A stretch of DNA of 43,665 bases from a virus (taxonomy: Duplodnaviria > Caudoviricetes). Where the stretch lies: positions 1 to 43,665 of the IMG/VR virus record IMGVR_UViG_3300044612_000613; one strand, 5' to 3'. The position numbers were made by a program, and so were the translations under genes. Below, piece after piece: positions 4,291-42,574 of the stretch (positions are counted from its first letter, which is position 1; every line of letters starts with the position of its first letter). The notes beneath the pieces were generated by a model, which had not been told where the DNA came from, ran no database searches, and worked only from the letters and a program-made list of their open reading frames with translations.

Positions 4291-5660
4291 GCGAAAAAGA
4301 TGTCCCCGACCACGGCGTTCAGGGTCGTGGCCGTGGCGTCCGTGTCAGCAGGGCCGGTGACGATTGACCGACTAATGGCGGTTGCAAAGCCAATGCCCGT
4401 GCCAAGGTCGCGGGAGGCCGTGCCGTTTGGCGGAATGCCGATGGTCATGGCGATAGCCGCGCCCGCCGTGGCCGATGCGACGTTGTGCAGTTTCACGTAC
4501 TGCCAGGTGGCCGTCGTGTTGGCGAGCTGCCAGCCCATGACGCGGCCCGCGGTGGCCTTGATCTGCGCGACGTTGGTCGTGGCCGCCGCGACAACGTGAT
4601 GGATCGTCGCCGCACCGGTCGCGTTGGCGCGCACCTGCATGCCCATGTCGCCGATCAGGTTCGTGCCGGCCGCCAGCGAGCCGGTGCCGATGTTCGCCGT
4701 GACCGTGCCGGACACCTGCGCCAGCATGTTTGCCGCCGCGTTGCTGGCAACCAGCGTCACAGCAGGAGTCCAAGGCTCAGTGGACAGGCGCGTAAAGGCG
4801 CGGATGCTGCCGCCAGTGATCGCCGTGGCGATTCGCAGGCGGAGGAACTTACAGCGCACCGGGAACGTGTAGATGATGGCCGACGCGGAAGCGGTAATCG
4901 CCGCCGTGATAGGCACGCCCGTGACAAGCGCAGCATTGAACACCGGCAGCGCGACCCAGTTGGTCCCGTCGTTAGACTGTTCGAAGATAAACGTGCCGCC
5001 CGTGCCCGTGCTTGAGACCTGAACCGAGGCGGCGCGATAGCTCGAAACGTTAAGCCCGCCCGCGCCAGAAACAGGCGTCAAGATGTTGTTGACGACTGCC
5101 GTCTGCGCCGCAGCGCCAACAAGCAAGAGCGGCGGCTCGGTGACAGGCTGCTGACCCGACGAATCGGCATCACCAAGCGCGCCATAAGCCACGTTCAAGT
5201 TGAACGTGGTCGTGGTGGCCGCGCCGGTGTTCTGCGCAATGACGCGGCAGAAGTTGCCATTGATCGTCAGCGAGCGCGCAAACCCCGCGCCGGCATCGAC
5301 ATAAAACACAATGTCAGGGGCCGCAAACGTTCCGCCTGCGTCAATGAACTGCCGCACCGTGATCGTGGTCGGCTGGTCGCTGGTCAGCAGAATCGAAATG
5401 CTCGGCTGATCCTGCGCCGACTCAATGCCGCCCGTGAACGACGCGCCGGCGGCGAGCTGCGTGGTGGAGCTGTTCGCCGTCGAGATCGGGTAGTTGTAGG
5501 CAGCTACCCGCTGGGGCAGCGGATGCAGCAGGCTGGCGTCGTTGTACGTGCCAGGCGGACCCCAGCCGGTCTTGCCGCGCGCGTAGTGGACGCCGCCGAT
5601 CTCGTTGGTGGCGACCAGCGGGCCACCAGTTCCCTCTTGGGTGACGAGATTGTCGGCCAT
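4287..5660 (-). CDS. Ala/Thr/Gly-rich beta-structured virion protein (head fibre/decoration-like)
   Basis: 457 aa, beta-sandwich-like composition, SD AAGGA, lies in the head-tail operon. Confidence 0.6.
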   Translation of the reverse strand: MADNLVTQEGTGGPLVATNEIGGVHYARGKTGWGPPGTYNDASLLHPLPQRVAAYNYPISTANSSTTQLAAGASFTGGIESAQDQPSISILLTSDQPTTITVRQFIDAGGTFAAPDIVFYVDAGAGFARSLTINGNFCRVIAQNTGAATTTTFNLNVAYGALGDADSSGQQPVTEPPLLLVGAAAQTAVVNNILTPVSGAGGLNVSSYRAASVQVSSTGTGGTFIFEQSNDGTNWVALPVFNAALVTGVPITAAITASASAIIYTFPVRCKFLRLRIATAITGGSIRAFTRLSTEPWTPAVTLVASNAAANMLAQVSGTVTANIGTGSLAAGTNLIGDMGMQVRANATGAATIHHVVAAATTNVAQIKATAGRVMGWQLANTTATWQYVKLHNVASATAGAAIAMTIGIPPNGTASRDLGTGIGFATAISRSIVTGPADTDATATTLNAVVGDIFFA

Positions 5661-16427: not shown

Positions 16428-16483
16428 GGGAACCCCCGGATGTTGTGGCGCCGGGAACCCCCGGCTTGAGGATAGTGCTACAG

Positions 16484-24633: not shown

Positions 24634-25139
24634 GCCTTGCCCTTCACGGTTTCGACGGCGGAATCATACAGCGCCTTCCACGTCTGCGGGTGGGGCTTGC
24701 CCGGTCGCCAGTTGCGGATGTAGCAGGCCCACGCGTGAGCATCGCGGCCGATGGCCGGCAGCGGCGCGGCGTCGGTAAACAGCAGCAGCCGCGCGAAGAT
24801 CGCGGCGAGCACGTCATCCTCGGCGAGCGCGGTCCACACGGCGCGGCTCTCGTTCGGGATGCCGCGCTTGTGGATGATCGCCGCCGCGATGTCGCGGCTG
24901 GCCGGATGGGTCAGCACGCCGGCGACGCCACCCCCGCGCTCGAACTGCCAGAACCCGCGGGCCGGACCGTTGGGCATGCCGGGGCGCGGCGGCATTTGCA
25001 GGCGGTGACGGAATCGCGACTCCTGCAAGCCGATCGCCAGCAGCATGACGCGGGCCTCGTCGGAAGCCATGCGCGCCGGCAGCTCGGCGAAGGCCGGCTC
25101 GACCATGTCGCGCAGTACGAGGTGCAGGTTGACAGTCAT
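24630..25139 (-). CDS. Putative endolysin (lysozyme-like fold)
   Basis: LLAIGLQESR...GPARGFWQFE...YIRNWRPGKP. Upstream of the spanins. ATGA overlap with cro. Confidence 0.75.
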   Translation of the reverse strand: MTVNLHLVLRDMVEPAFAELPARMASDEARVMLLAIGLQESRFRHRLQMPPRPGMPNGPARGFWQFERGGGVAGVLTHPASRDIAAAIIHKRGIPNESRAVWTALAEDDVLAAIFARLLLFTDAAPLPAIGRDAHAWACYIRNWRPGKPHPQTWKALYDSAVETVKGKA

Positions 25140-25378
25140 GCGGCGGCGGCCTCCATGGTTCGGCCGAGGACCAGGTCGTCGGCGGTCAGGACGATCGAGC
25201 GCTCGCGCGCCATGTTGAGCAGCGGCGCGTGATACCTCGAGGGGATCAAGCCGCCGGTGCCCTTGGGCACGGGCTGACCCCAGCGCCAGATAGTCGACCG
25301 GGAGACGCGGAGCGCGCGCTCGAGGTCGGTCGGTCGGAACGTTTCGGTGACCAGTTGGCCGGGCGTGATGCGATTCAT
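25136..25378 (-). CDS. cro: Cro-like HTH regulator
   Basis: LERALRVSRSTIWRW...GLIP. Divergent from the repressor. Confidence 0.8.
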   Translation of the reverse strand: MNRITPGQLVTETFRPTDLERALRVSRSTIWRWGQPVPKGTGGLIPSRYHAPLLNMARERSIVLTADDLVLGRTMEAAAA

Positions 25379-25472: not shown

Positions 25473-26063
25473 ATGATTGACACAGACTGGTTCATCACCC
25501 ACCTAGCAGATCGGAAGTTGTCGCAGCGACGGCTTGCACGCTTCATGGGCGTAGACCCTGCAAGCGTTCACCGACTACTGCAGGGAAAGAGACCAATGCG
25601 ATTTGACGAAGCCGGGCAGCTCGCTGCGCTGCTCGGAGTGACGGTTGACGACGTGCTGCGCCACGCTGGCCTGCCCGTGGGTGTCGGCGGCACGGTGCCC
25701 GTCGTAGGCACGATCGAGGCCGGCGGCGAGGCGCACATCGACTGGGGCGCAGAGCTGGGCCGCGCGCCCGCGCCGCTCGAGATGCCACCGAACACCGTGG
25801 CCGTGAGGATGCGGACGGCCGGGACGCCGTGGGAGCCGATGGACGGCTGGACTCTGTACGCCAGGCCACCGGTCGACGGCGTGCCCGCGGAAGTCGTGGG
25901 CCGCATGGCGCTGGTGCGGCTGGCCGGTAGCGGCACGATCCTGCTGCGGTTCCTGCGGCGAGGCTACACGCGCGGCCGGTACAACCTCGTGGGCTGGCAG
26001 GCGGCGTCGATCGAGGATGCCGCGCTGGATTGGGCGACCGCCGTGGATCACATCGCCACCTGA
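25473..26063 (+). CDS. cI: CI-like repressor (XRE HTH plus S24-like C-terminal domain)
   Basis: LSQRRLARFMGVDPASVHRLLQGKR, VPVVG.I.AG, and a degenerate S24-like C-terminus. Confidence 0.85.
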   Translation: MIDTDWFITHLADRKLSQRRLARFMGVDPASVHRLLQGKRPMRFDEAGQLAALLGVTVDDVLRHAGLPVGVGGTVPVVGTIEAGGEAHIDWGAELGRAPAPLEMPPNTVAVRMRTAGTPWEPMDGWTLYARPPVDGVPAEVVGRMALVRLAGSGTILLRFLRRGYTRGRYNLVGWQAASIEDAALDWATAVDHIAT

Positions 26064-26234: not shown

Positions 26235-26302
26235 TGATGCGGCGAGCGCAACAGGTGTTGACAGCCCGAACGTAACCCCTTAATGTTGCGACCAGCGCAA
26301 CG
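26235..26302 (+). promoter_or_regulatory. Rightward sigma70 promoter flanked by two operators
   Basis: TTGACA (26258-26263)-17 nt-TAATGT (26281-26286). Operators TGATGCG-gcgag-CGCAACA (26235-26253) and TGTTGCG-accag-CGCAACG (26284-26302). Confidence 0.85.
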
Positions 26303-26333
26303 CATCCCGCGATGCGCGCAGCAGGAGAGTCCC

Positions 26334-27263
26334 ATGGATCGTGAATTCATCACCCCCACCGACGAGGCCCACTGGCACGCAATGCGCGCCGCCGACCTCA
26401 CGTCGACCGACGTGGCCGCGCTGTTCGGCCTGAGCCCGTACAAAACCCGGTTCGAACTCTGGCACGAGAAGCGCTCCGGCGAGGTCGTGCGGATCAAAGA
26501 CAACGACCGGATGAAGTGGGGCCGGCGTCTGGAGTCGGCCATCGCCTACGGCATCGCTGAGGACCGCGAATGGTCGGCGACCCCGATGAAGGACTACGGG
26601 CGCATCCCGTCCGAGCGACTGGGCAGCAGCTTCGATTTCCAGTGCTTCGCGCGCCCCAGCAGCGACCACTTCATCCTCGAGATCAAGACCGTCGACGGCC
26701 TCGCCTTCCAGCGCGGCTGGATCATCGAGGACGACTACGTCGAGGCCCCGGCCCACATCGAGCTGCAGGTCCAGCACCAGATGCTCGTCTCGGGCCTGCG
26801 CCGCGCGTACATCGGCTGCCTGATCGGCGGCAACCGCATCGAGGTCCTGGAGCGCGAGGCCGACGACCAAGTCCACGCCGGCATCATCGCCGCCGCCCGC
26901 GACTTCTGGTCCAGCATCTCGGAAGGCCGCGAGCCGTCGCCCGTCATGCCCGACGACGCCGAGGCGGTGATCCGCATGAACCAGCACGCCGAGCCGGGCA
27001 AGTTGATCGACGCCCGCGGTGATGCGGTGATCGCGTCGCTCGTTGCGAGGTACGCCGAGCTGGGCCAGCAGGCCAAGGTCATCAGCGACGAGCGCGACGT
27101 GGTGAAGGCCGAACTGCTGCAGGCCATCGGCGACGCCGAGAAGGTCCTGCTCGACGGCTACAGCGTGAGCGCTGGCGTCGTCGGCCCTGCCGAGGTGGCC
27201 TACACGCGGCCCGGATACCGGAACCTGCGCATCACGGCGAAGAAAGCGAAGGCCGCCGCATGA
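26334..27263 (+). CDS. YqaJ-like (lambda-exo family) exonuclease
   Basis: W...R...TSTDVAALFGLSPY, GRRLE, SFD, LEIKT, QVQHQM. SD AGGAG. Confidence 0.9.
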   Translation: MDREFITPTDEAHWHAMRAADLTSTDVAALFGLSPYKTRFELWHEKRSGEVVRIKDNDRMKWGRRLESAIAYGIAEDREWSATPMKDYGRIPSERLGSSFDFQCFARPSSDHFILEIKTVDGLAFQRGWIIEDDYVEAPAHIELQVQHQMLVSGLRRAYIGCLIGGNRIEVLEREADDQVHAGIIAAARDFWSSISEGREPSPVMPDDAEAVIRMNQHAEPGKLIDARGDAVIASLVARYAELGQQAKVISDERDVVKAELLQAIGDAEKVLLDGYSVSAGVVGPAEVAYTRPGYRNLRITAKKAKAAA

Positions 27264-27454
27264 CCTACTCCCGCCTGATGGAGCAGGCCCACCGCCTCCA
27301 GGCCCAAACCTACCGCGCCTACGCCCTCGCCTACAGCATCGACCCATGGCTGACCGAGGACGAGCGCCGCGAGCAGGTCGATCACTTCACCGCCCTGTCC
27401 ACCACCTACGACGGCCTCGCCGCCGATTACCTCAAGATGGAGATCCCCGCATGA
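27260..27454 (+). CDS. Hypothetical protein
   Basis: ATGA overlaps at both ends. Confidence 0.7.
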   Translation: MTYSRLMEQAHRLQAQTYRAYALAYSIDPWLTEDERREQVDHFTALSTTYDGLAADYLKMEIPA

Positions 27455-28323
27455 GCACCCAGATGACCCCCGTGCAGAGCGTCTGCACCACGATCGCCAG
27501 CCCGCAGTTCAAGGCGAACCTCGAACAAGCCCTGCCGCCGAACGTCAGCATTGACCGCTTCATCCGCACGGCGTTGACCGGCATCCAGCAGAACCCAGCG
27601 GTGTGCGATGCCGACCGCCATTCGCTCTACCTCGCCATCCAGCGGTGTGCCGCCGACGGCCTGCTGCCCGACGGCCGCGAGGCCGCGCTTGCCATCTACG
27701 GCGGGAAAGTGAATTACATGCCGATGGTGCTGGGCATCATCAAACGCCTCGCCACCGCCGGCATCACGATCGACGCGCAGGTGGTCAAGGAACACGACAC
27801 GTTCGAGCAGGAGTTCGGCGACGACGCGCGCATCGTCCACAAGGCCCCGCGCCTCGGCCAGCCGCGCGGCCCGCTGATCGGCGCGTATGCCATCGCCAAG
27901 CTGCCGAACGGCATGGTGATGCGCGAGGTCATGGATAAGGACCAGATCGAGCAGGTTCGCACGTCGAGCCGCAGCGCGAACGCTGGCCCGTGGAAACAGT
28001 GGTACGACGAGATGGCCCGCAAGACCGTGCTGCGCCGCCTGGCCAAGCGCCTGCCGATCATCGACGCCAGCGTGGCCGACACGATCAATGCCGACGACGA
28101 CCTGATGGACTTCGCCGCGGGCAATGCTGGCCCCGGCGACAGCGCGCCGGAACCGGCACAGCCCACCGGCCCGCGCCGCCCGCGTGGCCTGCACGTCGTG
28201 GCCGCTGCAGCCGATCAGGCCGGCGACGTGATCGAGGGCGAAGTCGTGCCCCGCAACGGGCCGGCCGACGACGACCCGAGCCCGGCACCGGCCGGCGACC
28301 CGTCGGGCGACGGAGACTTCTGA
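27451..28323 (+). CDS. recT: RecT-family single-strand annealing protein
   Basis: ALP...DRFIR, GLLPDGREA, GPW..WYDEMARKTVLRRLAKRLP, acidic tail. Confidence 0.92.
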   Translation: MSTQMTPVQSVCTTIASPQFKANLEQALPPNVSIDRFIRTALTGIQQNPAVCDADRHSLYLAIQRCAADGLLPDGREAALAIYGGKVNYMPMVLGIIKRLATAGITIDAQVVKEHDTFEQEFGDDARIVHKAPRLGQPRGPLIGAYAIAKLPNGMVMREVMDKDQIEQVRTSSRSANAGPWKQWYDEMARKTVLRRLAKRLPIIDASVADTINADDDLMDFAAGNAGPGDSAPEPAQPTGPRRPRGLHVVAAAADQAGDVIEGEVVPRNGPADDDPSPAPAGDPSGDGDF

Positions 28324-28568: not shown

Positions 28569-28780
28569 CCATGCCCTCCAAGACCCCGACCAGCATGAAC
28601 CGCACCGAGTACCTGCAGATGCACCGCGAGCGGCGCGAGCTGATCGTTGCGGCCGTCAAGGCCGGCGGCAAGACCTACGACGAGATCGGTGAGCAGTTCG
28701 GCGTGTCTCGCGCGCGCATCTCGCAGATCGCAGCCGCCGCCGGCATCACGCGGAAGCGTGGCGGTGTACCTCAGTCCTGA
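28565..28780 (+). CDS. Small HTH protein (sigma70 region-4-like)
   Basis: KTYDEIGEQFGVSRARISQIA. Confidence 0.75.
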   Translation: MTMPSKTPTSMNRTEYLQMHRERRELIVAAVKAGGKTYDEIGEQFGVSRARISQIAAAAGITRKRGGVPQS

Positions 28781-28964
28781 ACAGCGGCGCCAGTACGAGG
28801 CCCGCAACCGACGCCTGCTCGCCGCCGTGCGCGCGGGCGTCCCTTACCCGCTGATCGCGGAGCGGTTCAGTCTGACCCGCCCCCGCGTCAGCCAGATAGC
28901 AACCAGCGCCGGCATCTACCGGTGCAAGCCAAGGAAGGCACCATGCGATACCAAGAACCCCTAG
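28758..28964 (+). CDS. Second small HTH protein, paralogue of the preceding gene
   Basis: VPYPLIAERFSLTRPRVSQIA. GTG start at 28758 or 28764. Confidence 0.7.
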   Translation: MAVYLSPEQRRQYEARNRRLLAAVRAGVPYPLIAERFSLTRPRVSQIATSAGIYRCKPRKAPCDTKNP

Positions 28965-29218
28965 ACGACGAGCTGCCCGAGTTTGACCAGGCCATCGTGG
29001 GCAGCGTCGTGCGCCTGCACCTGCCCCTCAAGTCGCCGAGCGCGCTGCTGCAGGTGGCCGACATGCTGCGCGGGCTCGCGACCCAATGCGAGCTTGCCGC
29101 CACCGGTCACGGCAACCCGCGGACGCGGATGTTCGAGCTGATGATGTACGCGCGGGAGGTTGACCGCAGGATGAAAAGGGTTAAGGGTCGAGGCAGGCCA
29201 CCGAAGCTAATCAGGTGA
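28943..29218 (+). CDS. Hypothetical protein with C-terminal GRP (AT-hook-like) motif
   Basis: SD AGGAAGG. Ends KGRGRPPK. Confidence 0.65.
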   Translation: MRYQEPLDDELPEFDQAIVGSVVRLHLPLKSPSALLQVADMLRGLATQCELAATGHGNPRTRMFELMMYAREVDRRMKRVKGRGRPPKLIR

Positions 29219-29228
29219 AACAGCCAAA

Positions 29229-29260
29229 GCAGGCGGCACACAATATCTAGTGTCGCCTGC
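29229..29260. terminator. Hairpin between convergent transcription units (possible terminator) containing an NrdR-box-like sequence
   Basis: GCAGGCGGCAC-N10-GTGTCGCCTGC flanked by A-runs. ACACAATATCTAGTGT at 29238-29253. Confidence 0.5.
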
Positions 29261-29263
29261 AAA

Positions 29264-29291
29264 ACCTTCCACCTTATATATTATGCGAATG
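29264..29291 (-). other. dif-like Xer recombination site (candidate attP)
   Basis: Minus strand reads CATTCGCATAA-TATATA-AGGTGGAAGGT. The XerC arm and spacer resemble proteobacterial dif; the XerD arm is degenerate. Confidence 0.72.
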
Positions 29292-29361
29292 GGCTGGCCT
29301 AACACGCCGGATAGATTAACCAGCCCATGCAGATAACCCTATCCGCACAAGCCGGATAATC

Positions 29362-29377
29362 CGACTAGATCTAGTGA
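29362..29377. promoter_or_regulatory. Second NrdR-box-like palindrome
   Basis: CGACTAGATCTAGTGA, with a perfect 12-bp palindromic core ACTAGATCTAGT. Confidence 0.5.
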
Positions 29378-29396
29378 GCCCGTTCGCGCTTCGTTC

Positions 29397-29960
29397 TCAC
29401 GCCCACGCGCGCACGATCATGCGCCAGTTGCCGTTCGTGAGGTTCAGCACCGTGCCCGTCGTCTTGTTCGGCAGGCCGAACACCGTGGCGTTGTTGGCGT
29501 AGCGCACGAAGATCGTCGTCGCGTTCGGGACCAGCACGACGCCGCGGTCAGCCACGGCATCGCCGACCAGCCCCCACTCGACCTCGTCGTTGACGGCGTA
29601 GTTGCCCTCGACCGTCTTGCAGATCAGCACGACGCGGATGATCTTCGGCACCATGCCGAGGCCATGCGTCAGCGACAGCGTGCCGGCGGTAGTGATCGTC
29701 TGCTCGCCTGAGTCGTAGGCGACAGTCAGAATCGGCCGCGCCGATGCGGCGATCTTCGCCGTCGTGATGGCATTGTCTGCCACCTTGGCGGTCGTGACCG
29801 CGCCGTCCTGAATGTCCACCGTTGCGACAGCATTGGCCGCCAGCTCGTCGGTGCCGACCGCGCCTGCCGCGATCTCGTCGGCCGCGACCGAATTGGTGCC
29901 GAGCTGAGTGGCACCGATGGTGCCGTCCGGAATCATCGTGCCGGGAGCTTTGCCGGTCAT
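29397..29960 (-). CDS. Fibre-like virion protein with 10-aa repeats
   Basis: About six (G/N)AVTTAKIAD-type repeats, then a globular C-terminus (THGLG..P...WR...RAW). Confidence 0.7.
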   Translation of the reverse strand: MTGKAPGTMIPDGTIGATQLGTNSVAADEIAAGAVGTDELAANAVATVDIQDGAVTTAKVADNAITTAKIAASARPILTVAYDSGEQTITTAGTLSLTHGLGMVPKIIRVVLICKTVEGNYAVNDEVEWGLVGDAVADRGVVLVPNATTIFVRYANNATVFGLPNKTTGTVLNLTNGNWRMIVRAWA

Positions 29961-32433: not shown

Positions 32434-35400
32434 TCACTCGCGCGGCGGGCCATAGACGGCCATCTTGGCGAACTCGGTCTTGTCCTGCTCGGGGTCGTCA
32501 AGGACGGCCTCGACGGTCTTGGAGGTGATGCGGACCTGAGCGGCAGGCGCACCGACGATCGGCCCAAGGATCGAGAAGATGTCCCGGGTGGCGTCGAAGT
32601 AGTCGACCTCGCCGGTTTCCATGTAGGTCCCGACGTTGTCGCCCATCGACTGGAACGCCCGGCCCATCTGAATGACGGCCTGCGTGGTCGGCGCGGCGCG
32701 CGGGTTGACCGGCTTGTCGGTGATGACCTCCTCGCCGATCGCCGTCAGGTCGCGCAGGTAGGGCAGCGTCATCAGCGGGAACAGGCCGACGTTGACAGCC
32801 AGCCAGCGCGCCCAGTCGCCCGAGCCGATCTCCTCGTCGTCGTCCCCGTCCTCGGGGCCGCGGCCGGCGGCCAGTGCGAAGATCGCCGGGGCGAGGAACA
32901 CCTGGATCATCAGGGTCGACGCACGGGCACCGACGCGCTGGGTCGCGCCCTCGCCCCGAGCCATGGCGTACAGGCGGCCGAAGATGACGAACATCGGCCC
33001 CATGAACTGCCGGGCCTGCTTGAACTGGGAGTCGCGCTCGAACGTCGAGACGTCCTTCCGGCCGCTGGCAGTCTGGGTCTGGCGCACGGCCTTGTCGGCC
33101 GATAGCACCGCCTGGGCCTCGGACTCCTTGGCATCAAGCGCCTGCTGGTAGCGGCCCCACCACAGCGCCCGCGTGACCTCGGCATCGGCGGCCCGGTGCA
33201 GCGCCATCATCATGCGGCGGTAGGCCGGCCCCCAGCCGCGCTCGCCGGCAAGCCGGGCAAGCTCCTGCTGGAACTGGAAGTCGGTCTCGTTCAGGCGCTG
33301 GGCCATGAACCCCGACTTCGCCACGATGGCCTCGGTGGTCTTGGTGCGGCTGGTCTCGAGCGCCCACCAGCCGCGCATCAGCGCCTTGACGCCGACGCGG
33401 TCGAGGCCCTGAATCGTCGCCGACGTCAGGTTCCCCAGCGCGATGTCGGGGCGGATGGCCAGCGCGGCGACCGACGTGTTGGTCAGCAGGGTGTCGAGCG
33501 CACGCGCCCAGCGGGCAGCCACGCGCCCAGCGACGGCCGACGACGCCGACACGGCATAGGACAGCGAGCCGCGCAGGTTGTCGTAGCCCTCGCGCCCGAC
33601 GCGCAGGATCAGTTGCTCCTTGATCTCGTTGTCGGACAGGATGCGGTTGACGTCGCGCACGGCCTCGCGGTGCGACAGGTCAGTGATGACGTGGTCCATG
33701 TGCCGCGACATGACCGACGCGAAATCGAGCTGCAGCGGGGACTCGAACGACTCGACGCGCGCCTTCTGGTAGCCCTTGGGCGTGAACGCCTTGGTGAAGC
33801 CCGCGCCCATCATCACGCGCATCGCGTCCGCGCCGTCCTGCGTCTCGCCCACCGTCGACCGGTTGGCGTCGTAGACCAGCGGCCAGTAGCCGCCGCGGAG
33901 CGTGACGTTCTTGCCGTCCTTGCTGACGACGTTCGCCTCCTGCGGGTCCACCTTCTCCGGCGGCAGGCCAGACATGCGCCGCTGCAGGTTCACGATGTCG
34001 GGCCACAGCGAGTCGACGGCGTCCCACATGCCCTGCACGAACTGCAGCTCGTCGGCGCGCAGCTCGGACAGGATCTGCTTGACCTCGCCGGGGTTGAGCT
34101 TGACGCGCCGGCTGCCGTCGACGATGCCGCCGTCCATCAGGCGCTGCAGGTTCGACGCGTTGCCGGTGTTCAGCGCGATGCCGAGCAGCGTCGCGCGGCT
34201 GACCGTGAGCTTTCCGCCGAGGATCGTGACCTTGTCCTGCAGGGTCTTGAACGCTTCCGGCGTCTCGGCGCGCAGGGCCTTGAGCTTGGTGCCCAGCGCC
34301 TTGCGATACTCGACGGCCTTGTTCTCGGCGTCCTGCATCACCGTCCAGACGTAGTCGTGCCACGGCCCGGTCTCGCCACCGTCCAGCGCCTCGATGACGT
34401 TCTCCGGCCGGTTGAGGTTCGCCAGCGCACCGACGACGCCGCGGCGCGCAGCCTCGAGGTCCCCGACGTCACGACGCGACACCTCCCCGCCGACCGTCTC
34501 GGGCAGCGAGTCCAGCATGCGGCCGAGCAGGTCCGTGCGGGCCTCGTCCCACTCGCGGCCGTCGCGGGCCGCGGTCAGCTTGTTCTTGATCTTGGCCAGG
34601 TGCTGGATGTTCTTCAACGCATCCATGGCAGCGTCGATCTCGGCAACCTTCGCCTCGCGCCAGTTCGTGACGCGCTCGGACTCGACGCGGGCGATCAGCT
34701 CCTCGGACACCGCCGTGATCTCGCCGGCGTCCTGCTGCGCCTCGACCCACGACCGCAGCGACTTCTTGCGCTCGAGGTCCTTGGTCGACATGCGGCGCAG
34801 GTCGAACGACGCGAGGATCTGGTTGACCTTGTCGAGATAGCCCTCCCACCCAGCGCGCGCCAGACGCTCCTGCGAGGGCTTCTTGGCCAGACGCAGGCCC
34901 TCGTCGCGGAAAGCCTCGGCGCGCTCCTTGGCGTCCGTCTCCGCGCGATAGTGAAGGCGAGCCATCAGCGAATTGCGGCGGGCCTTCGCGGCTTCCAGCT
35001 TGTCGCCCTTGCCCAGCGCGATCGCTGCCTTGCGTGCCTCCCGCATCTCGACCTGCTTGTGCCGGTTCGGGGCGAGGTCCTTGACCGGCTTCTCGGAGAC
35101 CAGTCGCGCCACGTAATCCCTGAGCGGCGGCAGCGCGAGCTTGCGGCCACCGAACAGCGCGTTGATCTCGCGGACCATGACCTCCTCGGCGGCGTCGGAG
35201 TGCAGCGCACGGGTGACGCGCGCATCCAGCTCGCCGTCGAGCATCGGGTCGGGGTTGCGCTCCTGCCAGCGGCGCAGAGCCTCGGCCTCGATGGCGTCCT
35301 TCTTGCTCGGCTTGGACGCGATGGCGTTCAGCATGTCCAGCGTGGACTTGAAGCCCAGCACCGACGCGGCCATGTCGGGATGCACGCCGCCCTCATTGGT

Positions 35401-38400
35401 GTGCATGCCGCTCATGTTCTTCTTGACCCACTCCTTGCCCTGCATGTCGGTCAGGGCGCGAGTGTCGAGCTTAAACGCGCGCTCGCCCTCGGGAAGCGGC
35501 GAGCCGTCGGGCATCGTGCCGCGGCGCAGGACGAAGATCGCACGCCACGCCGGGTCGTCGTTCAAGTCCTTCTCGACCTGTGCGCGCAGCTCCTTCATTT
35601 CCTCGGACTTCGCACGATTGGCCTCGCGCTTGGCGTAGGCGAACTGGACCGCGCCCTCCTGCTCGATGGCGGACTGCCGGGCAGCCTGCACCGCGAGCTG
35701 GTAGCGGCGGAACTCGTCGTCGGACATGTCGCCCTTCTCGGCTTCCGACAGCAGCGGCTGCATGCCGAGGTCCTGGCGAACGGCGTCGATCTCCTCGTCG
35801 GTCGCCAGCATGCGGTCGAAGTAGGCGCGCACCTCGGGCGTCAGCTCGGCGTTCTGCAGCGCGTTCTTGAACAGTGAGTAGATGTTGCCGAGCCACGTCT
35901 TGAACGACTGGAACGCACGCTTGAGGCGCGGGCTCGGGGCCTTGCCTTCCTCGAGGTACGCCTCGAACGACTCGGCGAACTTCTCGTGTGCCTTGCGAGC
36001 GCGCTCGTTGTGCGCGTCGTCGCCCTTAATCATGGCGAGCTGGTCGAGGCTGTCGACGCCAAGCCACTCCAGCAGCCGCGCGTCGTCGTCGACAATGCGC
36101 TGCTGGTCTGCCGTGCGATCCGCCTCGGGAATGGCCGCGACCTGCGCGTTCACCTGCCGGCGCAGCTCGAGGAACATGTGCGCCGATTCGTGCAGGAACG
36201 TCGACTTGTCGGCCTTGTTCCCCAGCGTGATGATGTAGCGATCGAACCCGCCCGGGTAGCCCGGCACGATGTTGATGCTGCCGCGCTTGGTGTCGTCGAG
36301 GGTTTGGGAGAGCGTCGACGGGTCGCCTAGGTCGAACGATCCGTCGTTGCCGATGGCTGATTTGACAGCCTTTTCGTTAAAGACAGCGTAAACATCAGAG
36401 ATGGTTTTTGATTCCGAATCTGGTGTCGGAGGGTCTAAAAGGTTCTTGAAGATTACGCCATCAAATCCTTGCCGCTTAGCCTCAAGTGTCACCTCGTCAG
36501 TTGTTGCAACGTCGTTGCGCCACCTGCCGGGAAGGCCGTCAGTTGGTATGTCGTCGTACCGCCTTCCACCAGCGTCAACGACCATCGGGTCTCGCATCCT
36601 GATGTATACAGGTTGCACGTTTGGAATATTGCCAAGCTGCCTCCCTCGAGACTCCATTGCGTACTGGGATGCAAGCTCCGTAGACGAAGTAAAGAATAAA
36701 GCCCCGCCGAAAGTAAACCCGCTGGTCGGGCTTATGTATTCGGAAAAATCCTCGCCCGTCCCGTGATACACCACCAACGGCCGCCCCTGCTCGTCGACGA
36801 CCTGCGACTCCCCGAACCACCGCTTGAACTCCGGCGTCTGCGTCTGCTCGGCGGGCTGGGATTGATAGAACGTCCGCACATCCGAGATCGCGCCCTCGTC
36901 CCAGATGACGTAGTTGCGGCTGCCGTCGCCAGCGCCTCGGCTCGTCCCTTCGAGGTAGCGCAGGCCGGGGATGCCGGCGGCGAGTAGGGCCTCGGAGGCG
37001 GCGCGCGAGTACCCGAGGGAGAGATACAAATCTTTCCCGGTCTGCGGCGCCCCATCGCCACCAGAAAGCACGTAGTCAACGCTGGCTTGGCCATACCAAC
37101 GAGCAATCACATCACGCAGCCCCTGCTTGACCTTCTCCGGCTGCTCACTCAGCGGCGCGTCCCAGTCTAGCAGATCGCCGTCGTCGGGGATCTCGGCGGC
37201 GTAGAGCTGGCCCTGCCCCGGCTTCTCCGTGAAGTCCTTTTTCGACTCGGCTTGATTCAGGTACTCAAGCGCCTCGCGCCAGACGGCCAGCGTCTGCTGC
37301 TCGCCCTTGTCGGCCTTGCGCTTCTCGCTCCACGTCTCGGCGTCCTTGATCCAGCCGGCCACGTCCTTGCGAGCCTTCGCCAGCGTGGTCGACTTGACGA
37401 TGCGCGCGGCGAAGTAGCCGCCAGTTCCGGGCTGGAACTCTTGCCCACGGAAGAACCGGCGCGGCGACTGCTCAGCTCCGCCGCTCAGCTTCTCCCGATA
37501 CCACTCCGCAATCTCCCGCTTGCCGGCAAAGTAGAGCCCCCACCCGTAAGCCTGCGCGCCCTCGCCCGTGCCGATGGCCTGGAGCTTGAACCCCTCGCGC
37601 TCGATGCCGCGATGCGGGCTGCCGTGAAACACCGACTGAAACATCATCCGCGGGTCCTTGCGCGACCACGTCCCGCGGTTCTCCGTCGACTTGACCTGCG
37701 TCGGCTCGAACGCGACCCACGCGTTCTGCTCGGGAATCCACACGCCGTCGAAACCCTGCGACTGCAGCATCATGCGAGTGAGCGCGGCCTCGGCCGCGTC
37801 CTCGAACGACTGCGCCTCGGCCAGCGTCATCGTCTTGGGGTTCTGGATCGAGAGGTAGACGTCCAGCACCACAGCGTCGGCGGGCACGTAGTTCGACGCC
37901 TTCTCGGCGTAGGACTCAGCGCCAGCGCGGTCGGGCGTGAAGAAAAACCCCAGCCCGCTGCTCGCGTGCCCGGTGGCCGTGGCCAGCAGGCGGCGATCGA
38001 ACGCGGCGAACTCCTCGCCCGTGCCGTGGTAGACGACCATCGGCGTGCCGTCGGGGTTCGCCACCTTGGACTGCTCGAACCAGTCCTTGAATGCCTGCGA
38101 GTCGGTCGGCGCGGCCTGCTCGAACTCGACGCCCTCCTCGCCCGGCGCGCGATCCATGCCCAGCGCGCGGCGCACCGCGGCGTTGTCCATCTCCGCAAGC
38201 TGCTCGCGGCCGATGCCGATCTCCTCGAGCATGCGGCCCAGTTCGTTCGTCGACTCGTTGAACGCAGCGCGGTCGACGTTGAAGCCTTCCGGCGAGAACG
38301 CCGGCGTCTCGCCGAGGTCGCCGATCAGCAGGTCGATGACCGTGTTGATGTCAGCGCCGTCGGCGTCGTACTCGTTCGCGTTCTCCTTGGCCGTGCGCTG

Positions 38401-40515
38401 GATGAACCCGTTGTCGATGGCCATCTCCAGCGCCTGCTCGACGGTCATGCCGCCCTGGCGCAGCAGGCCGCGGCGGTTGGCATCCTGCGCTCGCAGGTCG
38501 CCGGCACCGAAAGCGCCGGGGTCGATGCCGCCCTGCTTGCGGATCAGCTCGACCAGCCGCTGGCCACTGACCTCGCGGTCGGAGAACAGGCGGCCCGAGC
38601 GCAGCGCCTCGATGGCACCGTCAACGACGGCGTCCACGTTGCGGGCCTCGGCCACGCGCTGCACCGACTCCGGCGTGTCGCGGCGGATCGTGAACCGCGG
38701 GTTCTCCGGCGTGCCGGCCAGCGATTCCAGCGACATGCCTGAACGCACAACGGCGGTGCGGAACTGCGCAGCGAACAGCTCGGCCTGCTTCTCGGCAACG
38801 TCGGGCGTCGCGCCGGCCGACTCGAGCTGGTTGCGCGCGAGGTCGTAGATCCAGTTCGTCGAATCCTCGGCGGGGCGGCCCTGCGCGCCCGTCGCCTCGA
38901 TGAAGTCACGCAGCGCCTGCTCGCGGTCGAAGTTGACGGCCTCGTCCAGCGGCATGCCGCCCGGCGTGAGGCGGGCTGACTTCTTGGCGGCCGAGCGCTG
39001 CTCCGGGGTCAGTGCGGTGAAGAACCCCTCGATCGGCAAGCGCACCTGCCCGTTCGACAGGGCGGCCGACGTCAGCTCGGCACTGTCCACGCCCAGCGGC
39101 TCGAGTGAGTCGCGCAGTTGGTCGTCGGACTGGAACAGCTCACGAAACCGATCGACCGGAAGGTAGACGTCCGAAATGCTGGAATTCTTGAGGCGGGACA
39201 GTACCTCGCGCAGCCGCTCCGGCGACAGCTCGGTCAGCTTGAGGCCGCCGATGGCCTTGTCGATCTGCTCCAGCGTCTCGGCTTCCTGCACCGCCATGGT
39301 CGCGTCCTGCTCGGCACGGACGGCGTGCATGGTGCCGCGGAAGATCAGTCCGACGCCGAACGCCGCCAGTCCCTCGCGCTCCAGCCCTTGGAACATGTCG
39401 AACGAGTCGTCGACGAGCGCCTTGGTGATGGCGTCCTGCATGATCGACTCGGTCATTTCCTGACCGGCCTCGCCCGCGCCCGCCATCAGGATGTCGGCGA
39501 CGCGCTTGTTCAGCGCAGCCTTGGCCGGCTCCGGCAGTCGGCGCATCAGGAAGCCCAAGCCCATGCGCTCGGTCACGGCGGTGACGGTCGCACCAAGCGC
39601 CTGCGCGGTGTCGGCCTCAGCCGTGCCGTAGGTGCCAGCCGCCTCAGCCCGGTCGGCCTGCGTGTCGATGCCCTGCGCGCCGCCAAGGCCCAGCACGCCA
39701 GCACCGCCAGTGAAATAGGCCGCGGCAAGGTACGGACCCAGCGAGCCCAAGCCCGACGCGATGTCGGTGCCGAGGTTCTGGCGCGACTCGTCGACCGCGA
39801 TGTTCTCCTGCGCGAACCCCTCGATGGCAGATCCCGCCGAACGAATGCCGCCGCCGACCAAGCCCAGCGGGTTCTCGACCCAGTCGGGGAGCATGTCGCG
39901 CGCCGACTGCACATTCGCAGCGTACTGATCCCCGAGGTCGTCGGAGAACAGCCGCCAGAACGACTCGCCCAGCGCCTCGGCGGCCTGCTGCGAGCGCTGC
40001 ATGTTGCGCCCGCTCATGTTGAGCGCTTCGCCGCCGCCAGAGATCGCCGAGCCCACGCCGGACACGACGCCTGCCAAAAGCGATTGCGCGCCGTCAGCGA
40101 CGTAGCGGAATGCCGGGGCGGTGATGAACGCCTGCTCGAGCAGCGACAGTCCCTCGATGTCGTCCTTCGCCACGGCCGCGGCGTCCGGGTCGCCGGCCAG
40201 GTACTCAGCCGTGCGCGGGGCCTGCGTGGCGAACTCGTCCATGCGCGCCATCGTTTCCTGCTCGCGCAGGTCGTCGATGCGCCGCTCGGCCGTGCCCGTG
40301 GGCAGCCCGTACTTCACAGCCAGCCGCTCGGCCTCGGCCACCAGCGCGGGGTCGCGGCCGGCGTTCACGCGGGTCGTGGCGCGCAGGCTGGTGCGGACTG
40401 CGTCGTCCTGCTCCCCGAACACATCGGCGTCTGTCATCAGCCCCGTCGTCTGCTGCCGCTTCGGGTCAGGGGCCGGGCCGAACACCTCGTCGTCGGTCAG
40501 CAGGCGATCACTCAC
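32434..40515 (-). CDS. Giant internal virion (ejection) polyvalent protein with three ADP-ribosyltransferase-like domains and an HExxH metallopeptidase
   Basis: About 2,690 aa in the T7 gp16 position. YHGT/FHGS ART-like motifs three times, and STFLHESAH...HEKFA. GTG 40515 has SD GGAG (alternative start 40533). Confidence 0.85.
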   Translation of the reverse strand: MSDRLLTDDEVFGPAPDPKRQQTTGLMTDADVFGEQDDAVRTSLRATTRVNAGRDPALVAEAERLAVKYGLPTGTAERRIDDLREQETMARMDEFATQAPRTAEYLAGDPDAAAVAKDDIEGLSLLEQAFITAPAFRYVADGAQSLLAGVVSGVGSAISGGGEALNMSGRNMQRSQQAAEALGESFWRLFSDDLGDQYAANVQSARDMLPDWVENPLGLVGGGIRSAGSAIEGFAQENIAVDESRQNLGTDIASGLGSLGPYLAAAYFTGGAGVLGLGGAQGIDTQADRAEAAGTYGTAEADTAQALGATVTAVTERMGLGFLMRRLPEPAKAALNKRVADILMAGAGEAGQEMTESIMQDAITKALVDDSFDMFQGLEREGLAAFGVGLIFRGTMHAVRAEQDATMAVQEAETLEQIDKAIGGLKLTELSPERLREVLSRLKNSSISDVYLPVDRFRELFQSDDQLRDSLEPLGVDSAELTSAALSNGQVRLPIEGFFTALTPEQRSAAKKSARLTPGGMPLDEAVNFDREQALRDFIEATGAQGRPAEDSTNWIYDLARNQLESAGATPDVAEKQAELFAAQFRTAVVRSGMSLESLAGTPENPRFTIRRDTPESVQRVAEARNVDAVVDGAIEALRSGRLFSDREVSGQRLVELIRKQGGIDPGAFGAGDLRAQDANRRGLLRQGGMTVEQALEMAIDNGFIQRTAKENANEYDADGADINTVIDLLIGDLGETPAFSPEGFNVDRAAFNESTNELGRMLEEIGIGREQLAEMDNAAVRRALGMDRAPGEEGVEFEQAAPTDSQAFKDWFEQSKVANPDGTPMVVYHGTGEEFAAFDRRLLATATGHASSGLGFFFTPDRAGAESYAEKASNYVPADAVVLDVYLSIQNPKTMTLAEAQSFEDAAEAALTRMMLQSQGFDGVWIPEQNAWVAFEPTQVKSTENRGTWSRKDPRMMFQSVFHGSPHRGIEREGFKLQAIGTGEGAQAYGWGLYFAGKREIAEWYREKLSGGAEQSPRRFFRGQEFQPGTGGYFAARIVKSTTLAKARKDVAGWIKDAETWSEKRKADKGEQQTLAVWREALEYLNQAESKKDFTEKPGQGQLYAAEIPDDGDLLDWDAPLSEQPEKVKQGLRDVIARWYGQASVDYVLSGGDGAPQTGKDLYLSLGYSRAASEALLAAGIPGLRYLEGTSRGAGDGSRNYVIWDEGAISDVRTFYQSQPAEQTQTPEFKRWFGESQVVDEQGRPLVVYHGTGEDFSEYISPTSGFTFGGALFFTSSTELASQYAMESRGRQLGNIPNVQPVYIRMRDPMVVDAGGRRYDDIPTDGLPGRWRNDVATTDEVTLEAKRQGFDGVIFKNLLDPPTPDSESKTISDVYAVFNEKAVKSAIGNDGSFDLGDPSTLSQTLDDTKRGSINIVPGYPGGFDRYIITLGNKADKSTFLHESAHMFLELRRQVNAQVAAIPEADRTADQQRIVDDDARLLEWLGVDSLDQLAMIKGDDAHNERARKAHEKFAESFEAYLEEGKAPSPRLKRAFQSFKTWLGNIYSLFKNALQNAELTPEVRAYFDRMLATDEEIDAVRQDLGMQPLLSEAEKGDMSDDEFRRYQLAVQAARQSAIEQEGAVQFAYAKREANRAKSEEMKELRAQVEKDLNDDPAWRAIFVLRRGTMPDGSPLPEGERAFKLDTRALTDMQGKEWVKKNMSGMHTNEGGVHPDMAASVLGFKSTLDMLNAIASKPSKKDAIEAEALRRWQERNPDPMLDGELDARVTRALHSDAAEEVMVREINALFGGRKLALPPLRDYVARLVSEKPVKDLAPNRHKQVEMREARKAAIALGKGDKLEAAKARRNSLMARLHYRAETDAKERAEAFRDEGLRLAKKPSQERLARAGWEGYLDKVNQILASFDLRRMSTKDLERKKSLRSWVEAQQDAGEITAVSEELIARVESERVTNWREAKVAEIDAAMDALKNIQHLAKIKNKLTAARDGREWDEARTDLLGRMLDSLPETVGGEVSRRDVGDLEAARRGVVGALANLNRPENVIEALDGGETGPWHDYVWTVMQDAENKAVEYRKALGTKLKALRAETPEAFKTLQDKVTILGGKLTVSRATLLGIALNTGNASNLQRLMDGGIVDGSRRVKLNPGEVKQILSELRADELQFVQGMWDAVDSLWPDIVNLQRRMSGLPPEKVDPQEANVVSKDGKNVTLRGGYWPLVYDANRSTVGETQDGADAMRVMMGAGFTKAFTPKGYQKARVESFESPLQLDFASVMSRHMDHVITDLSHREAVRDVNRILSDNEIKEQLILRVGREGYDNLRGSLSYAVSASSAVAGRVAARWARALDTLLTNTSVAALAIRPDIALGNLTSATIQGLDRVGVKALMRGWWALETSRTKTTEAIVAKSGFMAQRLNETDFQFQQELARLAGERGWGPAYRRMMMALHRAADAEVTRALWWGRYQQALDAKESEAQAVLSADKAVRQTQTASGRKDVSTFERDSQFKQARQFMGPMFVIFGRLYAMARGEGATQRVGARASTLMIQVFLAPAIFALAAGRGPEDGDDDEEIGSGDWARWLAVNVGLFPLMTLPYLRDLTAIGEEVITDKPVNPRAAPTTQAVIQMGRAFQSMGDNVGTYMETGEVDYFDATRDIFSILGPIVGAPAAQVRITSKTVEAVLDDPEQDKTEFAKMAVYGPPRE

Positions 40516-42574
40516 TGGGCGCGCTCCATCCATTGCCGGTCCACGTCAGGGGACCGCGTGGCGTGAAGTATACGGTGCCAGCCGTTCGCTGGGCGGGGTC
40601 ACGCGGGGCGCGCGGCAGCTCGAACGCCGGCACCTCGTCGCTGCTGGTCATGCCGAACCAGCCCGGTTTCTCGACCACGGCCTTGACCAGCAGCCGGTCG
40701 GCCATGTCCTGCACCTCGGCCGCGTTGGGCATCTTCCCGTTGTCCGCCGTGTGCTGCGCCACCTCAGCCGCCAGAGAGTCGCGGAACTGGTTGACCGCGT
40801 CCTCGCGCCCCGACTTCGGTTTCAGCGGGTCAGCCACGCGCTCCGGCCGCTGGGCGTAGCCGATCTGCACCATCGCCGCCCGGGTGATCTCCTCCTGCAG
40901 TTGGCGGGACTTGACGAACTCAGACTCCTGACCGGCGCGAAGCTGCCGGCGTGCGGCCAGCAGCGTGTTGTAGTCGTCGTCGTCCAGCTTGTCCCGGTTC
41001 TCCTCAAGGAACCCCGGCGTGATGAAGCGCTGCGGGGTAAGCGTGGCGATGTCGGCCAGCTCGTTGTAGGCCGTCCGGTCGCTCGGGACCATGTCGCGCC
41101 GCTGGCGCTCGTAGGTCTCGACCTTCACCAAATCCAGCGGGTTGATGCTCGACCGCATCTCCGGCGTCATGCTGGCGATCGTGCCGCCGCCCTGGATGTG
41201 GGCGTATGCCTGCTCCAGCGTCGCCTCGCGGGCCTCAGCATCGGCAACGGCCTTGGCGCGCAGCACGCTGGCAGCCTTGGACTCAGCCAGCCGGCGCACG
41301 TCCGGGTCGGTCTCGGCGGCCAGCGCGCGCATGACGCCAGCCTCGGTCGGGCTGCTCGTGGCGGCCTGCTCGAACTTGGCGACGCGCGCCTCCCAGCCGG
41401 CGGCATACTGCTGGTATTTCTCGGGGTCCTGCTCGACCAGCTTGGCGTAATGCGCGCGGCGCAGGCGGGCGTAGACCACCGGGTCGCCGCCCGACTCCAC
41501 GATCCACTTGCGGGCGTTCGCCGGCCCTTGGTTCACCGCGGCGTCGAAGGCGATTCCCTGCAGCGCGGGCGGCAGGGAGTCGGCGTTGATCGCGTCCCAG
41601 TAGCGCTCGCGGTACAGCTCTTTCGCCTTCTCCGGCGTCAGGTTCCGCACGTCGACGTCGGGGTTGGCCGTGATGTTGATGCCGAAGTTGGTCTCGCCCT
41701 TGCCGGCGTCGTTGGCCACGTAGCCACCCTCGACGGCCAGCACCTGCTCGACCACGTTGTCGAACCCGCCCGAGCCGTACAGCGCGCGAGACACCAGCGC
41801 GTCAGCCTTCACCGTGTTGCGAGCCTCGCGGATGCGCGGCTCCAAGCGCACGACCTCGCCGGCCGTGAGCTTGTCCTTCATCGAGTCGAAGTAGGTCACG
41901 GCAGCGCCCGGGTCCTCGACCATCAGCCGATCGACCACGCCGGAGTAGACACGGCCGCGGGCCTCGGCCAGCGCCGCGTTCACCACGACCGGCGACGCGC
42001 CACGCATCTCGGGCATCGACAGGATGCCGCGGGCAGCGCGCTCGGCCTCGAGGTCCACCCGCTCCGGGTCGGTGTAGTTCGCCGCCGCGGACTGGGTGGC
42101 CGTCGACACGTAGGCCTTCGCCTCGTCGGAGTAGAACCGCTCGGACTCCTGCAAGACGTGGCGCGACAGCCCGCGCTGCAGGTCGGTGCGGCGGCCTTGG
42201 GCCTGCCGGCGGAACGCATCGCGCTGGGCCGGCGTGAGCCGCCCCTCGATCTGGCCGACCTGCTGGTCCCACTGCGGGAACACCTGCTCGGGCAGACCGA
42301 ACGCGTCGCGCCCGCGCTTGGCGTAGGCCCCGTTCTCCGGGTCGTTGAATAGGGACAGCTCGAGGTCGGCGAGCTGCCGGTCGGCGTCCATGAGCGCCGC
42401 GACGTCCGCCTTCTCCTGCTCCTGCTGGGCGATCTGCCCGAGCATGCCGCCGGTCTTGCCGACGGCCTGAGCGACGTCAGCGCCCAGCGTCTCGGCCGTG
42501 GTGTAGTTCTGGATTCGCGCGCTGGGCAGGTTCGAAACGCCGACCTGCTGCTGGTACTGGGGAACCCGTGGCAT
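40508..42574 (-). CDS. Internal virion protein with GH108 lysozyme domain
   Basis: VLAVEGGY...GETNFGI...YRERYWD...FDAAVNQG. MPRVP N-terminus. T7 gp15 position. Confidence 0.85.
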   Translation of the reverse strand: MPRVPQYQQQVGVSNLPSARIQNYTTAETLGADVAQAVGKTGGMLGQIAQQEQEKADVAALMDADRQLADLELSLFNDPENGAYAKRGRDAFGLPEQVFPQWDQQVGQIEGRLTPAQRDAFRRQAQGRRTDLQRGLSRHVLQESERFYSDEAKAYVSTATQSAAANYTDPERVDLEAERAARGILSMPEMRGASPVVVNAALAEARGRVYSGVVDRLMVEDPGAAVTYFDSMKDKLTAGEVVRLEPRIREARNTVKADALVSRALYGSGGFDNVVEQVLAVEGGYVANDAGKGETNFGINITANPDVDVRNLTPEKAKELYRERYWDAINADSLPPALQGIAFDAAVNQGPANARKWIVESGGDPVVYARLRRAHYAKLVEQDPEKYQQYAAGWEARVAKFEQAATSSPTEAGVMRALAAETDPDVRRLAESKAASVLRAKAVADAEAREATLEQAYAHIQGGGTIASMTPEMRSSINPLDLVKVETYERQRRDMVPSDRTAYNELADIATLTPQRFITPGFLEENRDKLDDDDYNTLLAARRQLRAGQESEFVKSRQLQEEITRAAMVQIGYAQRPERVADPLKPKSGREDAVNQFRDSLAAEVAQHTADNGKMPNAAEVQDMADRLLVKAVVEKPGWFGMTSSDEVPAFELPRAPRDPAQRTAGTVYFTPRGPLTWTGNGWSAPSE

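Follow-up and report, generated by a model that had tools for sequence, protein, structure and literature searches.

In phage lambda, attP carries Int and IHF arms on both sides of the core, a host protein bends the DNA, and the arms are redistributed to attL and attR. NrdR, for its part, is the repressor of ribonucleotide-reductase (RNR) genes. It is described as needing two boxes an integer number of helical turns apart, a single box being bound 530- to 1000-fold more weakly; it takes three or four helical turns between the boxes and introduces a 90-degree kink at each (PMC12051234). Positions C4, A6, A8, T9, T11 and G13 are reported to be highly conserved in NrdR boxes, and E. coli NrdR to bind heterologous boxes (PMC13584703). 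Among sites served by Xer recombinases, the closest described systems are the IMEX of the TLC-phi type, for which G5 of the XerD arm is described as the key XerD contact and the most important base for XerD-driven recombination (PMC9226527), and the plasmid sites cer and psi, where host regulators act together with PepA (PMC5357621).

Here we analyse a virus record of 43,665 bp (the window), in which an earlier note had pointed out two NrdR-box-like palindromes bracketing a dif-like site and had proposed that NrdR loops this DNA. We find that the site belongs to a module of integrase-less tailed phages that is real, conserved and three-part. Its NrdR-dependent mechanism, drawn from sequence, is a well-supported hypothesis rather than a result.

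The phage and its dif-like site

The record is rated 100% complete and has the gene content of a podophage: GP7 capsid, Bbp16/Bbp19-like genes, a primase-helicase, CI-like and Cro-like genes, YqaJ and RecT. A family search of its 50 ORFs gave zero matches to integrase and ribonucleotide reductase families, no partition gene was found among the same ORFs, and tblastn with one query each for NrdA, NrdJ, NrdR and XerD gave no match in the window. The claim that the phage has no ribonucleotide reductase is thus upheld by both kinds of search. Far from the site, positions 32434-40533 encode an internal virion-type protein of 2699 aa that carries LPD22 and a pair of ADP-ribosyltransferase (ART-PolyVal) domains and shows variable blocks relative to its counterparts in related phages. 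The genes around the site are as follows.

25136-25378, minus strand: Cro-like gene of the lysogeny switch
25473-26063, plus strand: CI-like repressor of the lysogeny switch, gone from the relative G001 along with the att module
26283..28323, plus strand: YqaJ exonuclease and RecT (family matches), in the same operon, upstream of the module
28571..28964, plus strand: two small related HTH-type ORFs upstream of ORF91
28571-28780, plus strand: first HTH-type ORF, with a Pfam Sigma70_r4/HTH match
frame ending at 28964, start uncertain, plus strand: second HTH-type ORF
28943..29218, plus strand: ORF91, 91 aa, of an unnamed family, adjoining the site; candidate Xer activation or directionality factor
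29397..29960, minus strand: tail-fibre-like gene, its end 20 bp from box 2

The two HTH-type ORFs are a 72% DNA repeat of each other, and G001 retains the first only. Directly outside the module, the tail-fibre-like gene is exchanged among relatives, and contigs of two runs (X3 and X4) have loose ends at 29401. The genes on both sides of the dif-like site have their 3' ends facing it, and a scan of 28900-29700 found neither a sigma-70-like promoter nor a terminator; gene ends and scan therefore agree with the earlier description of both boxes as lying between convergent genes with no promoter to repress. The site itself comprises the following elements.

29229..29260, no strand: GC stem around box 1, with compensatory changes in the relative L344
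29238..29253, no strand: box 1, the proximal NrdR-type box, centred on the XerD side at 32 bp from the crossover centre
29264..29274, minus strand: degenerate XerD arm AGGTGGAAGGT, G retained at position 5
29275..29280, minus strand: crossover spacer TATATA, 6 bp
29281..29291, minus strand: intact XerC arm CATTCGCATAA
29281..29363, no strand: accessory stretch from the XerC arm to box 2, with possible binding sites or a hairpin
29281-29297/29320-29336: inverted repeat in the accessory stretch
29308, 29340 (inverted) and 29353: three CGGATA words in the accessory stretch
29362..29377, no strand: box 2, the distal NrdR-type box, centred on the XerC side at 92 bp from the crossover centre

The pattern of XerC arm plus spacer has a single match in the whole window, and the hexamer TATATA is frequent among chromosomal dif sites of Gamma- and Alphaproteobacteria. 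The G5 of the XerD arm is present in 24 of 27 module clusters, the arm being otherwise degenerate. The stretch 29219-29396 has a fold z of -3.85. Around box 1, the flank alignment consists of the window and L344 rows only; an intrinsic terminator at this box is unlikely, since the terminator scan was empty and the T run is absent in L344.

Resemblance of the palindromes to NrdR boxes

Both palindromes were scored with a matrix learned de novo as a paired palindrome, with no seed consensus and with local background. Training on 59 nrdA/nrdJ upstream regions of Gamma- and Alphaproteobacteria yielded 34 box pairs at spacings of 30-33, 31 of which are 31-32 bp apart, and the consensus ACACAATATATTGTGT; an unpaired de novo motif search on the nrd promoters had converged on poly-A/T, and the paired model was used instead. 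The positions given in the earlier note are correct, as are the 124 bp from box to box and the 10 bp between box 1 and the degenerate XerD arm, and the likeness to NrdR boxes holds under the matrix. Relative to the training boxes, box 1 with its 20.1 bits stands at the 94th percentile and box 2 with 12.2 bits at the 40th; the two rank first and second among 43,650 positions of the genome. When the 178-bp intergenic stretch was shuffled 5000 times, 14 shuffles gave at least 12.2 bits and none gave 20.1. All six conserved positions are present in both boxes; a 16-bp consensus with up to three mismatches does not recover box 2. Two unpaired single NrdR-like scores, of 11.5 and 11.1 bits, occur elsewhere in the window, at 5076-5091 and 16433-16448.

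In the two relatives L352 and L344, box 1 is identical, though its flanks differ in L344. Box 2 scores 5.6 bits in L352 with the six conserved positions present and is decayed in L344 (1.0 bits). The variant of box 2 found in L352, and likewise in runs X3 and X4, is altered at position 7, outside the six conserved positions. Taken at the level of sequence, these boxes are likely to be bound by host NrdR.

Distance between the proximal box and the Xer core

The association of NrdR boxes with dif-like sites at fixed spacing, which the earlier note had raised, was found across unrelated phages. The layout is present in tailed phages of at least five capsid families, the window phage and four other module phages (G091, G092, G093 and G095) having five different ones. 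A box of at least 8 bits lies on the XerD side in 27 of 33 sequence clusters, 25 of them with the box at +30 to +33 and 2 at +42/+43; chromosomal dif sites gave no comparable box-distance peak. The pattern used for the viral scan consisted of the XerC arm and spacer followed, after 12-42 bases, by a 10-bp box core. It retrieved 50 loci from viral contigs, 33 of them with a gap of 23-24, which is also the gap in the window. Applied to bacterial genomes, the same pattern returned 88 loci with a flat spread of gaps, 4 being at 23-24; the notion that phages copied the box from a host dif context was rejected on this count. After clustering, 13 of 20 viral clusters fell within 4 of 31 gap values, with a binomial p of 9e-8 that is inflated because several of these non-independent clusters come from one marine phage family. 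All 23 metagenome loci with a full XerC arm have gaps of 23-25, whereas the other 69 are scattered over 20-27, and with the spacer left free 23 of 43 clusters are at gaps 23-25. The pattern that retrieved most of the loci already contained the box, so that free tests are confined to spacing, distal box, G5 and gene. Among viral dif-like words the layout is a minority: of 123 unselected sites, drawn from 122 stretches out of an estimated 570, 3 have it.

The dif-like match might also be regarded as a mere degenerate NrdR box. This reading was rejected, because full XerC arms are enriched beyond what the pattern demands (23 of 92), G5 is retained, and real dif junctions exist (see below).

The scans brought up several further arrangements. 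In a separate class of viral sites, with a gap of 18-19, a near-canonical XerD arm and an NrdR-type box are combined with variable spacers, and an ORF91-family match is absent (L504, L509, L513, L515, L517, L531, L538, L547, L554; L542, L543, L559; L560, L570). In a microvirus with capsid F (L014:2825-2912), a XerC arm is accompanied by NrdR-like boxes at -27 and +46; this may be an ssDNA-phage version of the arrangement. In two small isolate-derived elements (L028 and L051, both at 3001-3035), a canonical XerD arm has a box core immediately after it, at gap 12. Box cores were also seen next to chromosomal-type dif sites (L205, L208, L213, L231, L248, L260; L209, L214, L241, L244, L253, L257), with small peaks at gap 31 (Alphaproteobacteria, Desulfobulbales) and gap 29 (Verrucomicrobiota, Kiritimatiellae) that may mark host dif-linked NrdR boxes. 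Many marine viral contigs (L052-L173) have a dif-like site with a degenerate XerD arm and neither the box nor an ORF91-family gene, so that Xer use by tailed phages may be much wider.

The distal box and helical phasing

The distal box was never included in any search pattern. With the best member taken per cluster, 20 of 23 clusters have a higher-scoring best box on the XerC side than on the distal XerD side, which served as the control (medians 10.4 vs 2.6 bits). A XerC-side box of at least 8 bits is present in 16 of 27 module clusters, compared with 2 of 39 chromosomal-type dif sites. The box-to-box distances in these 16 clusters are 123, 124, 124, 125, 135, 145, 145, 147, 148, 155, 160, 169, 177, 178, 180 and 189 bp. 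They show phasing with a period of 10.5 bp (R 0.63, phase -0.9; Rayleigh p approximately 0.002 for n=16 clusters that are not fully independent), slightly stronger with one of 10.7 bp. Such phasing of the two boxes fits a loop, as far as sequence spacing can indicate one. In 11 of 27 clusters the distal box is either weak or missing; one of the 11 is an integrated junction, where no such box is expected. In the integrated copy of genome G206, the box-to-box sum is 163 bp, half a turn off phase.

The main rival to looping starts from the proximal box. One NrdR dimer would sit on that box and another on the spacer and XerD arm, so that XerCD is blocked at high dATP, most strongly at the prophage end that retains the box. 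The proximal offsets of 30-33 and 42-43 bp equal the two inter-box spacings that NrdR is reported to accept (PMC12051234), and a second dimer could therefore cover the core. Moreover, the proximal box is better conserved than the distal one, and G3 of the XerD arm, with which an NrdR half-site is complete, is found in 9 of 27 module sites but in 3 of 35 comparison sites (p 0.02). The supposed half-box in the core, however, lacks C4 in all 27 cases and scores like the comparison sites (medians 4.5 vs 4.7 bits, p 0.37), while loss of a conserved C or G is reported to be able to abolish NrdR binding (PMC13584703). Occlusion also leaves the phased distal box unexplained, and we regard it as unlikely.

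A small protein family encoded beside the site

ORF91 has zero Pfam or PHROG matches; a profile built from it found 91 library proteins. With a strict HMM, constructed from library proteins only and with matches counted down to 13 bits, 12 of 25 clusters at gaps 22-25 proved to have an ORF of this family next to the site vs 0 of 18 others (Fisher p 4e-4), as did 19 of 23 full-arm metagenome loci vs 0 of 69 other metagenome loci. Among the controls, none of 61 capsid-relative loci and none of 60 nrd loci matched, and genome-scan loci matched in 2 of 88 cases. A wider HMM, to which seven locus ORFs were added, matched 105 loci, and 102 of these have a XerC-arm word nearby and form 33 clusters. 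In 18 clusters the gene lies on the XerD side and in the other 15 on the XerC side, in each case directed towards the site, at distances of 22-522 bp. It is the third part of the module, beyond the boxes and the site that the earlier note had described.

Two loci found by the protein alone also have the box: one at gap 24 (+32) behind a different spacer (L501), the other, in genome G428, at +33 (L579). Three weak genome matches without a site (L577, L578, L580) are probably false. L337, 96% identical to the window, is without 29102-29834 between short repeats, which truncates the ORF91 gene and removes the site; this may be a deletion or a misassembly.

The position of the gene bears on whether the boxes might be NrdR operators, for the ORF91-family gene, the YqaJ-RecT operon or an antisense RNA, with attP a neighbour merely through compactness of the cassette. 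All tested NrdR functions are reported as transcriptional (bioRxiv 10.1101/2025.03.28.645925, PMC12051234, PMC12176259, PMC4409342), and in the marine family the boxes flank the RBS and start of a small ORF that crosses the site ahead of YqaJ-RecT. Yet both window genes end at the site, the promoter scan was empty, and the distance from box to crossover stays constant while the gene sits on either side, up to hundreds of base pairs away. A purely transcriptional role thus seems improbable.

The palindromes might instead be bound by a phage protein, either of the ORF91 family or of the HTH type, which would build the recombination complex, the likeness to NrdR being incidental or secondary. The ORF91-family gene accompanies the box almost everywhere, and the family has a conserved R-x-x-x-P strand and a basic C-terminus. 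Its members, however, are 17-40% identical, and proteins so divergent would need to preserve the NrdR motif, including the flanks not fixed by the search pattern (8-22 bits). Furthermore, the known hosts encode NrdR, which is reported to bind heterologous boxes (PMC13584703). The ORF91 model, an extended strand followed by three helices (pLDDT 78), gave no significant match in fold searches and has no recognisable DNA-binding fold, for what such a model can tell. We consider this explanation quite improbable as well. The ORF91 family is nevertheless a rival candidate for binding the boxes. As a candidate for making up for the weak XerD arm, it is preferable to NrdR, to which the earlier note had given that role.

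A search of the ESM Atlas returned no usable match, and the family was found neither in GenBank phages (two queries) nor among the 72,556 plasmids of PLSDB (one query). The predicted complex of XerD from G206 with the ORF91-family protein of its prophage scored 0.00 and was counted neither way.

Junctions at chromosomal dif

One piece of evidence for integration comes from Pelagibius litoralis (genome G206), in which two separate contigs carry putative prophage junctions. On contig A, host genes are followed by a XerC arm, spacer, degenerate XerD arm, a box at +42, an ORF91 homologue and phage early genes. Contig B runs from phage tail and head genes through a box at -121 (8.5 bits) and a XerC arm to a spacer identical to that of contig A, then to a canonical XerD arm and metG-holB-tmk-dacA. 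By their order, the two contigs, which are unjoined, look like the two junctions of a dif prophage. Genome G428 shows one junction of an element of the marine family, located at the host locus seen in G206, and contains an attP-like copy in addition. In the two hosts, genes for XerC, XerD and NrdR are all present.

Two further observations concern the crossover point and the occurrence of unusual spacers. In L535, two direct sites, each accompanied by a box, enclose an insert of 710 bp; in L553, which is without the insert, the first XerC arm is joined to the second XerD arm, which corresponds to a crossover in the spacer. The unusual phage spacers GCAACA and GGTATA are also present in chromosomal dif-like sites of two Alphaproteobacteria (G217 and G052). 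The insert itself (L535:2502-3212) is a single-gene cassette (phrog_872) that occupies the site of the phage and brings another NrdR-type box with it, possibly a mini-element that parasitises the module.

G001, the closest complete relative (mostly 85-92% identical), has lost nearly all of CI, reduced to its last codons (L327:14776-14781), together with the whole module, and is apparently a lytic derivative. This co-loss, although a single case, links the site to lysogeny. The PF00589 tyrosine integrase is absent in 5 of 5 module-bearing records; the marine family encodes a serine resolvase. In that family (L002-L050, e.g. L011:2955-3242), the dif-like site and proximal box lie within a short membrane-protein ORF before YqaJ-RecT, with the serine resolvase and a MarR-type gene upstream of it, and integration would accordingly cut the 5' end of the ORF.

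Integrated copies are rare: 2 of 88 genome-scan loci have the gene, and one clear genome was found among 802 searched by protein. A junction of the window phage with its own host did not appear in the contigs of 4 freshwater or unspecified runs, which is no evidence of absence, as contigs drop rare forms. The rarity could be taken to mean that the site resolves dimers of a plasmid-like prophage, in the manner of cer and psi, and does not integrate; many spacers are unlike the common dif hexamers, and a RecE/RecT pair would produce dimers. Against this stand the junctions at dif, which two genomes show at one and the same host locus, the two unusual spacers found in alphaproteobacterial chromosomes, and the lack of a plasmid match or a partition gene in the searches above. 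Resolution as the sole role is therefore very improbable. The integration role, one of those suggested in the earlier note, fits the observations: the site behaves like an attP for dif in the junctions of relatives, the spacer crossover in L535/L553 and the co-loss with CI in G001, and these make it very likely that it is the attP for host XerCD.

Proposed mechanism

We propose that host NrdR bridges the two boxes and bends the arms round the core as a dATP-gated accessory factor, while ORF91 is the activator that replaces FtsK. Resting on sequence patterns, this reading is given a probability of roughly 55%. An NrdR tetramer with dATP and ATP would bind both boxes and kink each by about 90 degrees, closing a loop of 12-18 turns that holds the core. 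The loop would shape attP for synapsis with dif, much as ArgR/PepA do at cer, and the ORF91-family protein would be the likely XerD activator in FtsK's place, as XafT is. The crossover would send the two boxes to opposite prophage ends, and directionality would follow from their separation. Since NrdR binds DNA only at high dATP, cells whose replication is slow or has stalled would favour integration, and draining of dNTPs would relax the complex. Bridging by NrdR, as far as it is described, is known for boxes 31-43 bp apart and not for 124-189 bp (PMC12051234).

On a broader reading, a widespread class of tailed phages would integrate at dif by a three-part kit consisting of a TLC-like attP, a new activator family and a loop held by host NrdR. 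The host dATP/ATP ratio would then directly govern site-specific integration as well as excision, and NrdR would have its first non-transcriptional role. We give this reading as a whole even odds.

If NrdR does take part in recombination, nucleotide metabolism would be directly linked to the outcome of lysis versus lysogeny. The module offers a lysogeny route to integrase-less tailed phages otherwise scored as lytic, a common marine family among them, and the ORF91 family is a new candidate family of Xer activators. With a site of 180 bp and an E. coli NrdR that accepts heterologous boxes, the system is compact and testable. A literature search, with partial coverage of subscription papers, gave no link between NrdR and Xer, NrdR appearing with XerD only in passing mentions; a search on phage NrdR boxes and tailed-phage IMEX gave nothing among the titles that describes such a module.

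Comparison with known systems

The RNR-promoter NrdR operators, as described in PMC12051234, PMC13584703 and PMC12176259, share with the present site the 16-bp boxes, the six conserved positions and a near-integer number of turns between boxes. They differ in that the boxes here are tied to a recombination core, with no promoter or RNR gene: the spacing is 124 bp in the window and 123-189 bp over all, as opposed to 31-32 or 42-43 bp, and the boxes overlap no RNR-operon promoter in the window. By spacing and promoter, the site is not a canonical NrdR operator.

With cer (ColE1; ArgR and PepA) and psi (pSC101; ArcA and PepA) it has in common a Xer core accompanied by accessory DNA of about 100-190 bp, which contains the box of a host transcription regulator, the distal box being on the XerC side (according to PMC5357621). 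Here, in contrast, boxes flank the core on both sides and are split by the crossover, the best-kept box is on the XerD side, integration and not only dimer resolution is indicated, and the proposed regulator is a nucleotide sensor. The site is not of the cer/psi type, in which accessory DNA is on the XerC side only and recombination is resolution-selective; here integrated forms exist. Compared with lambda attP, the recombinase is host XerCD, and the proposed bender would be ligand-gated.

The dif-type DJR and filamentous prophages of Vibrio, in the account available in PMC12715192, likewise have an exchangeable lysogeny module of repressor, dif-like attP and small activator-like gene, which is lost or swapped between relatives. 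Those phages are non-tailed and use the XafT/P15 family, whereas the phages here are tailed and encode an unrelated or unrecognised family.

The likeness to IMEX of the TLC-phi type, as set out in PMC9226527 and PMC5357621, extends to the absence of an integrase, the intact XerC arm and spacer, the divergent XerD arm with G5, integration at dif (here seen for relatives) and a small phage gene beside attP. Catalysis in the TLC-phi type is XerD-first and does not depend on FtsK. The differences are that the elements here are tailed dsDNA phages of 40-55 kb rather than a satellite, an inovirus or a DJR phage, and that the activator there is XafT, whereas here it would be a small protein without a Pfam or PHROG family. 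Fixed, phased NrdR-type boxes are not mentioned in the accessible text of those two papers. Overall, by analogy, the module appears to work like an IMEX of the TLC-phi type combined with host-regulator boxes resembling those of cer and psi.
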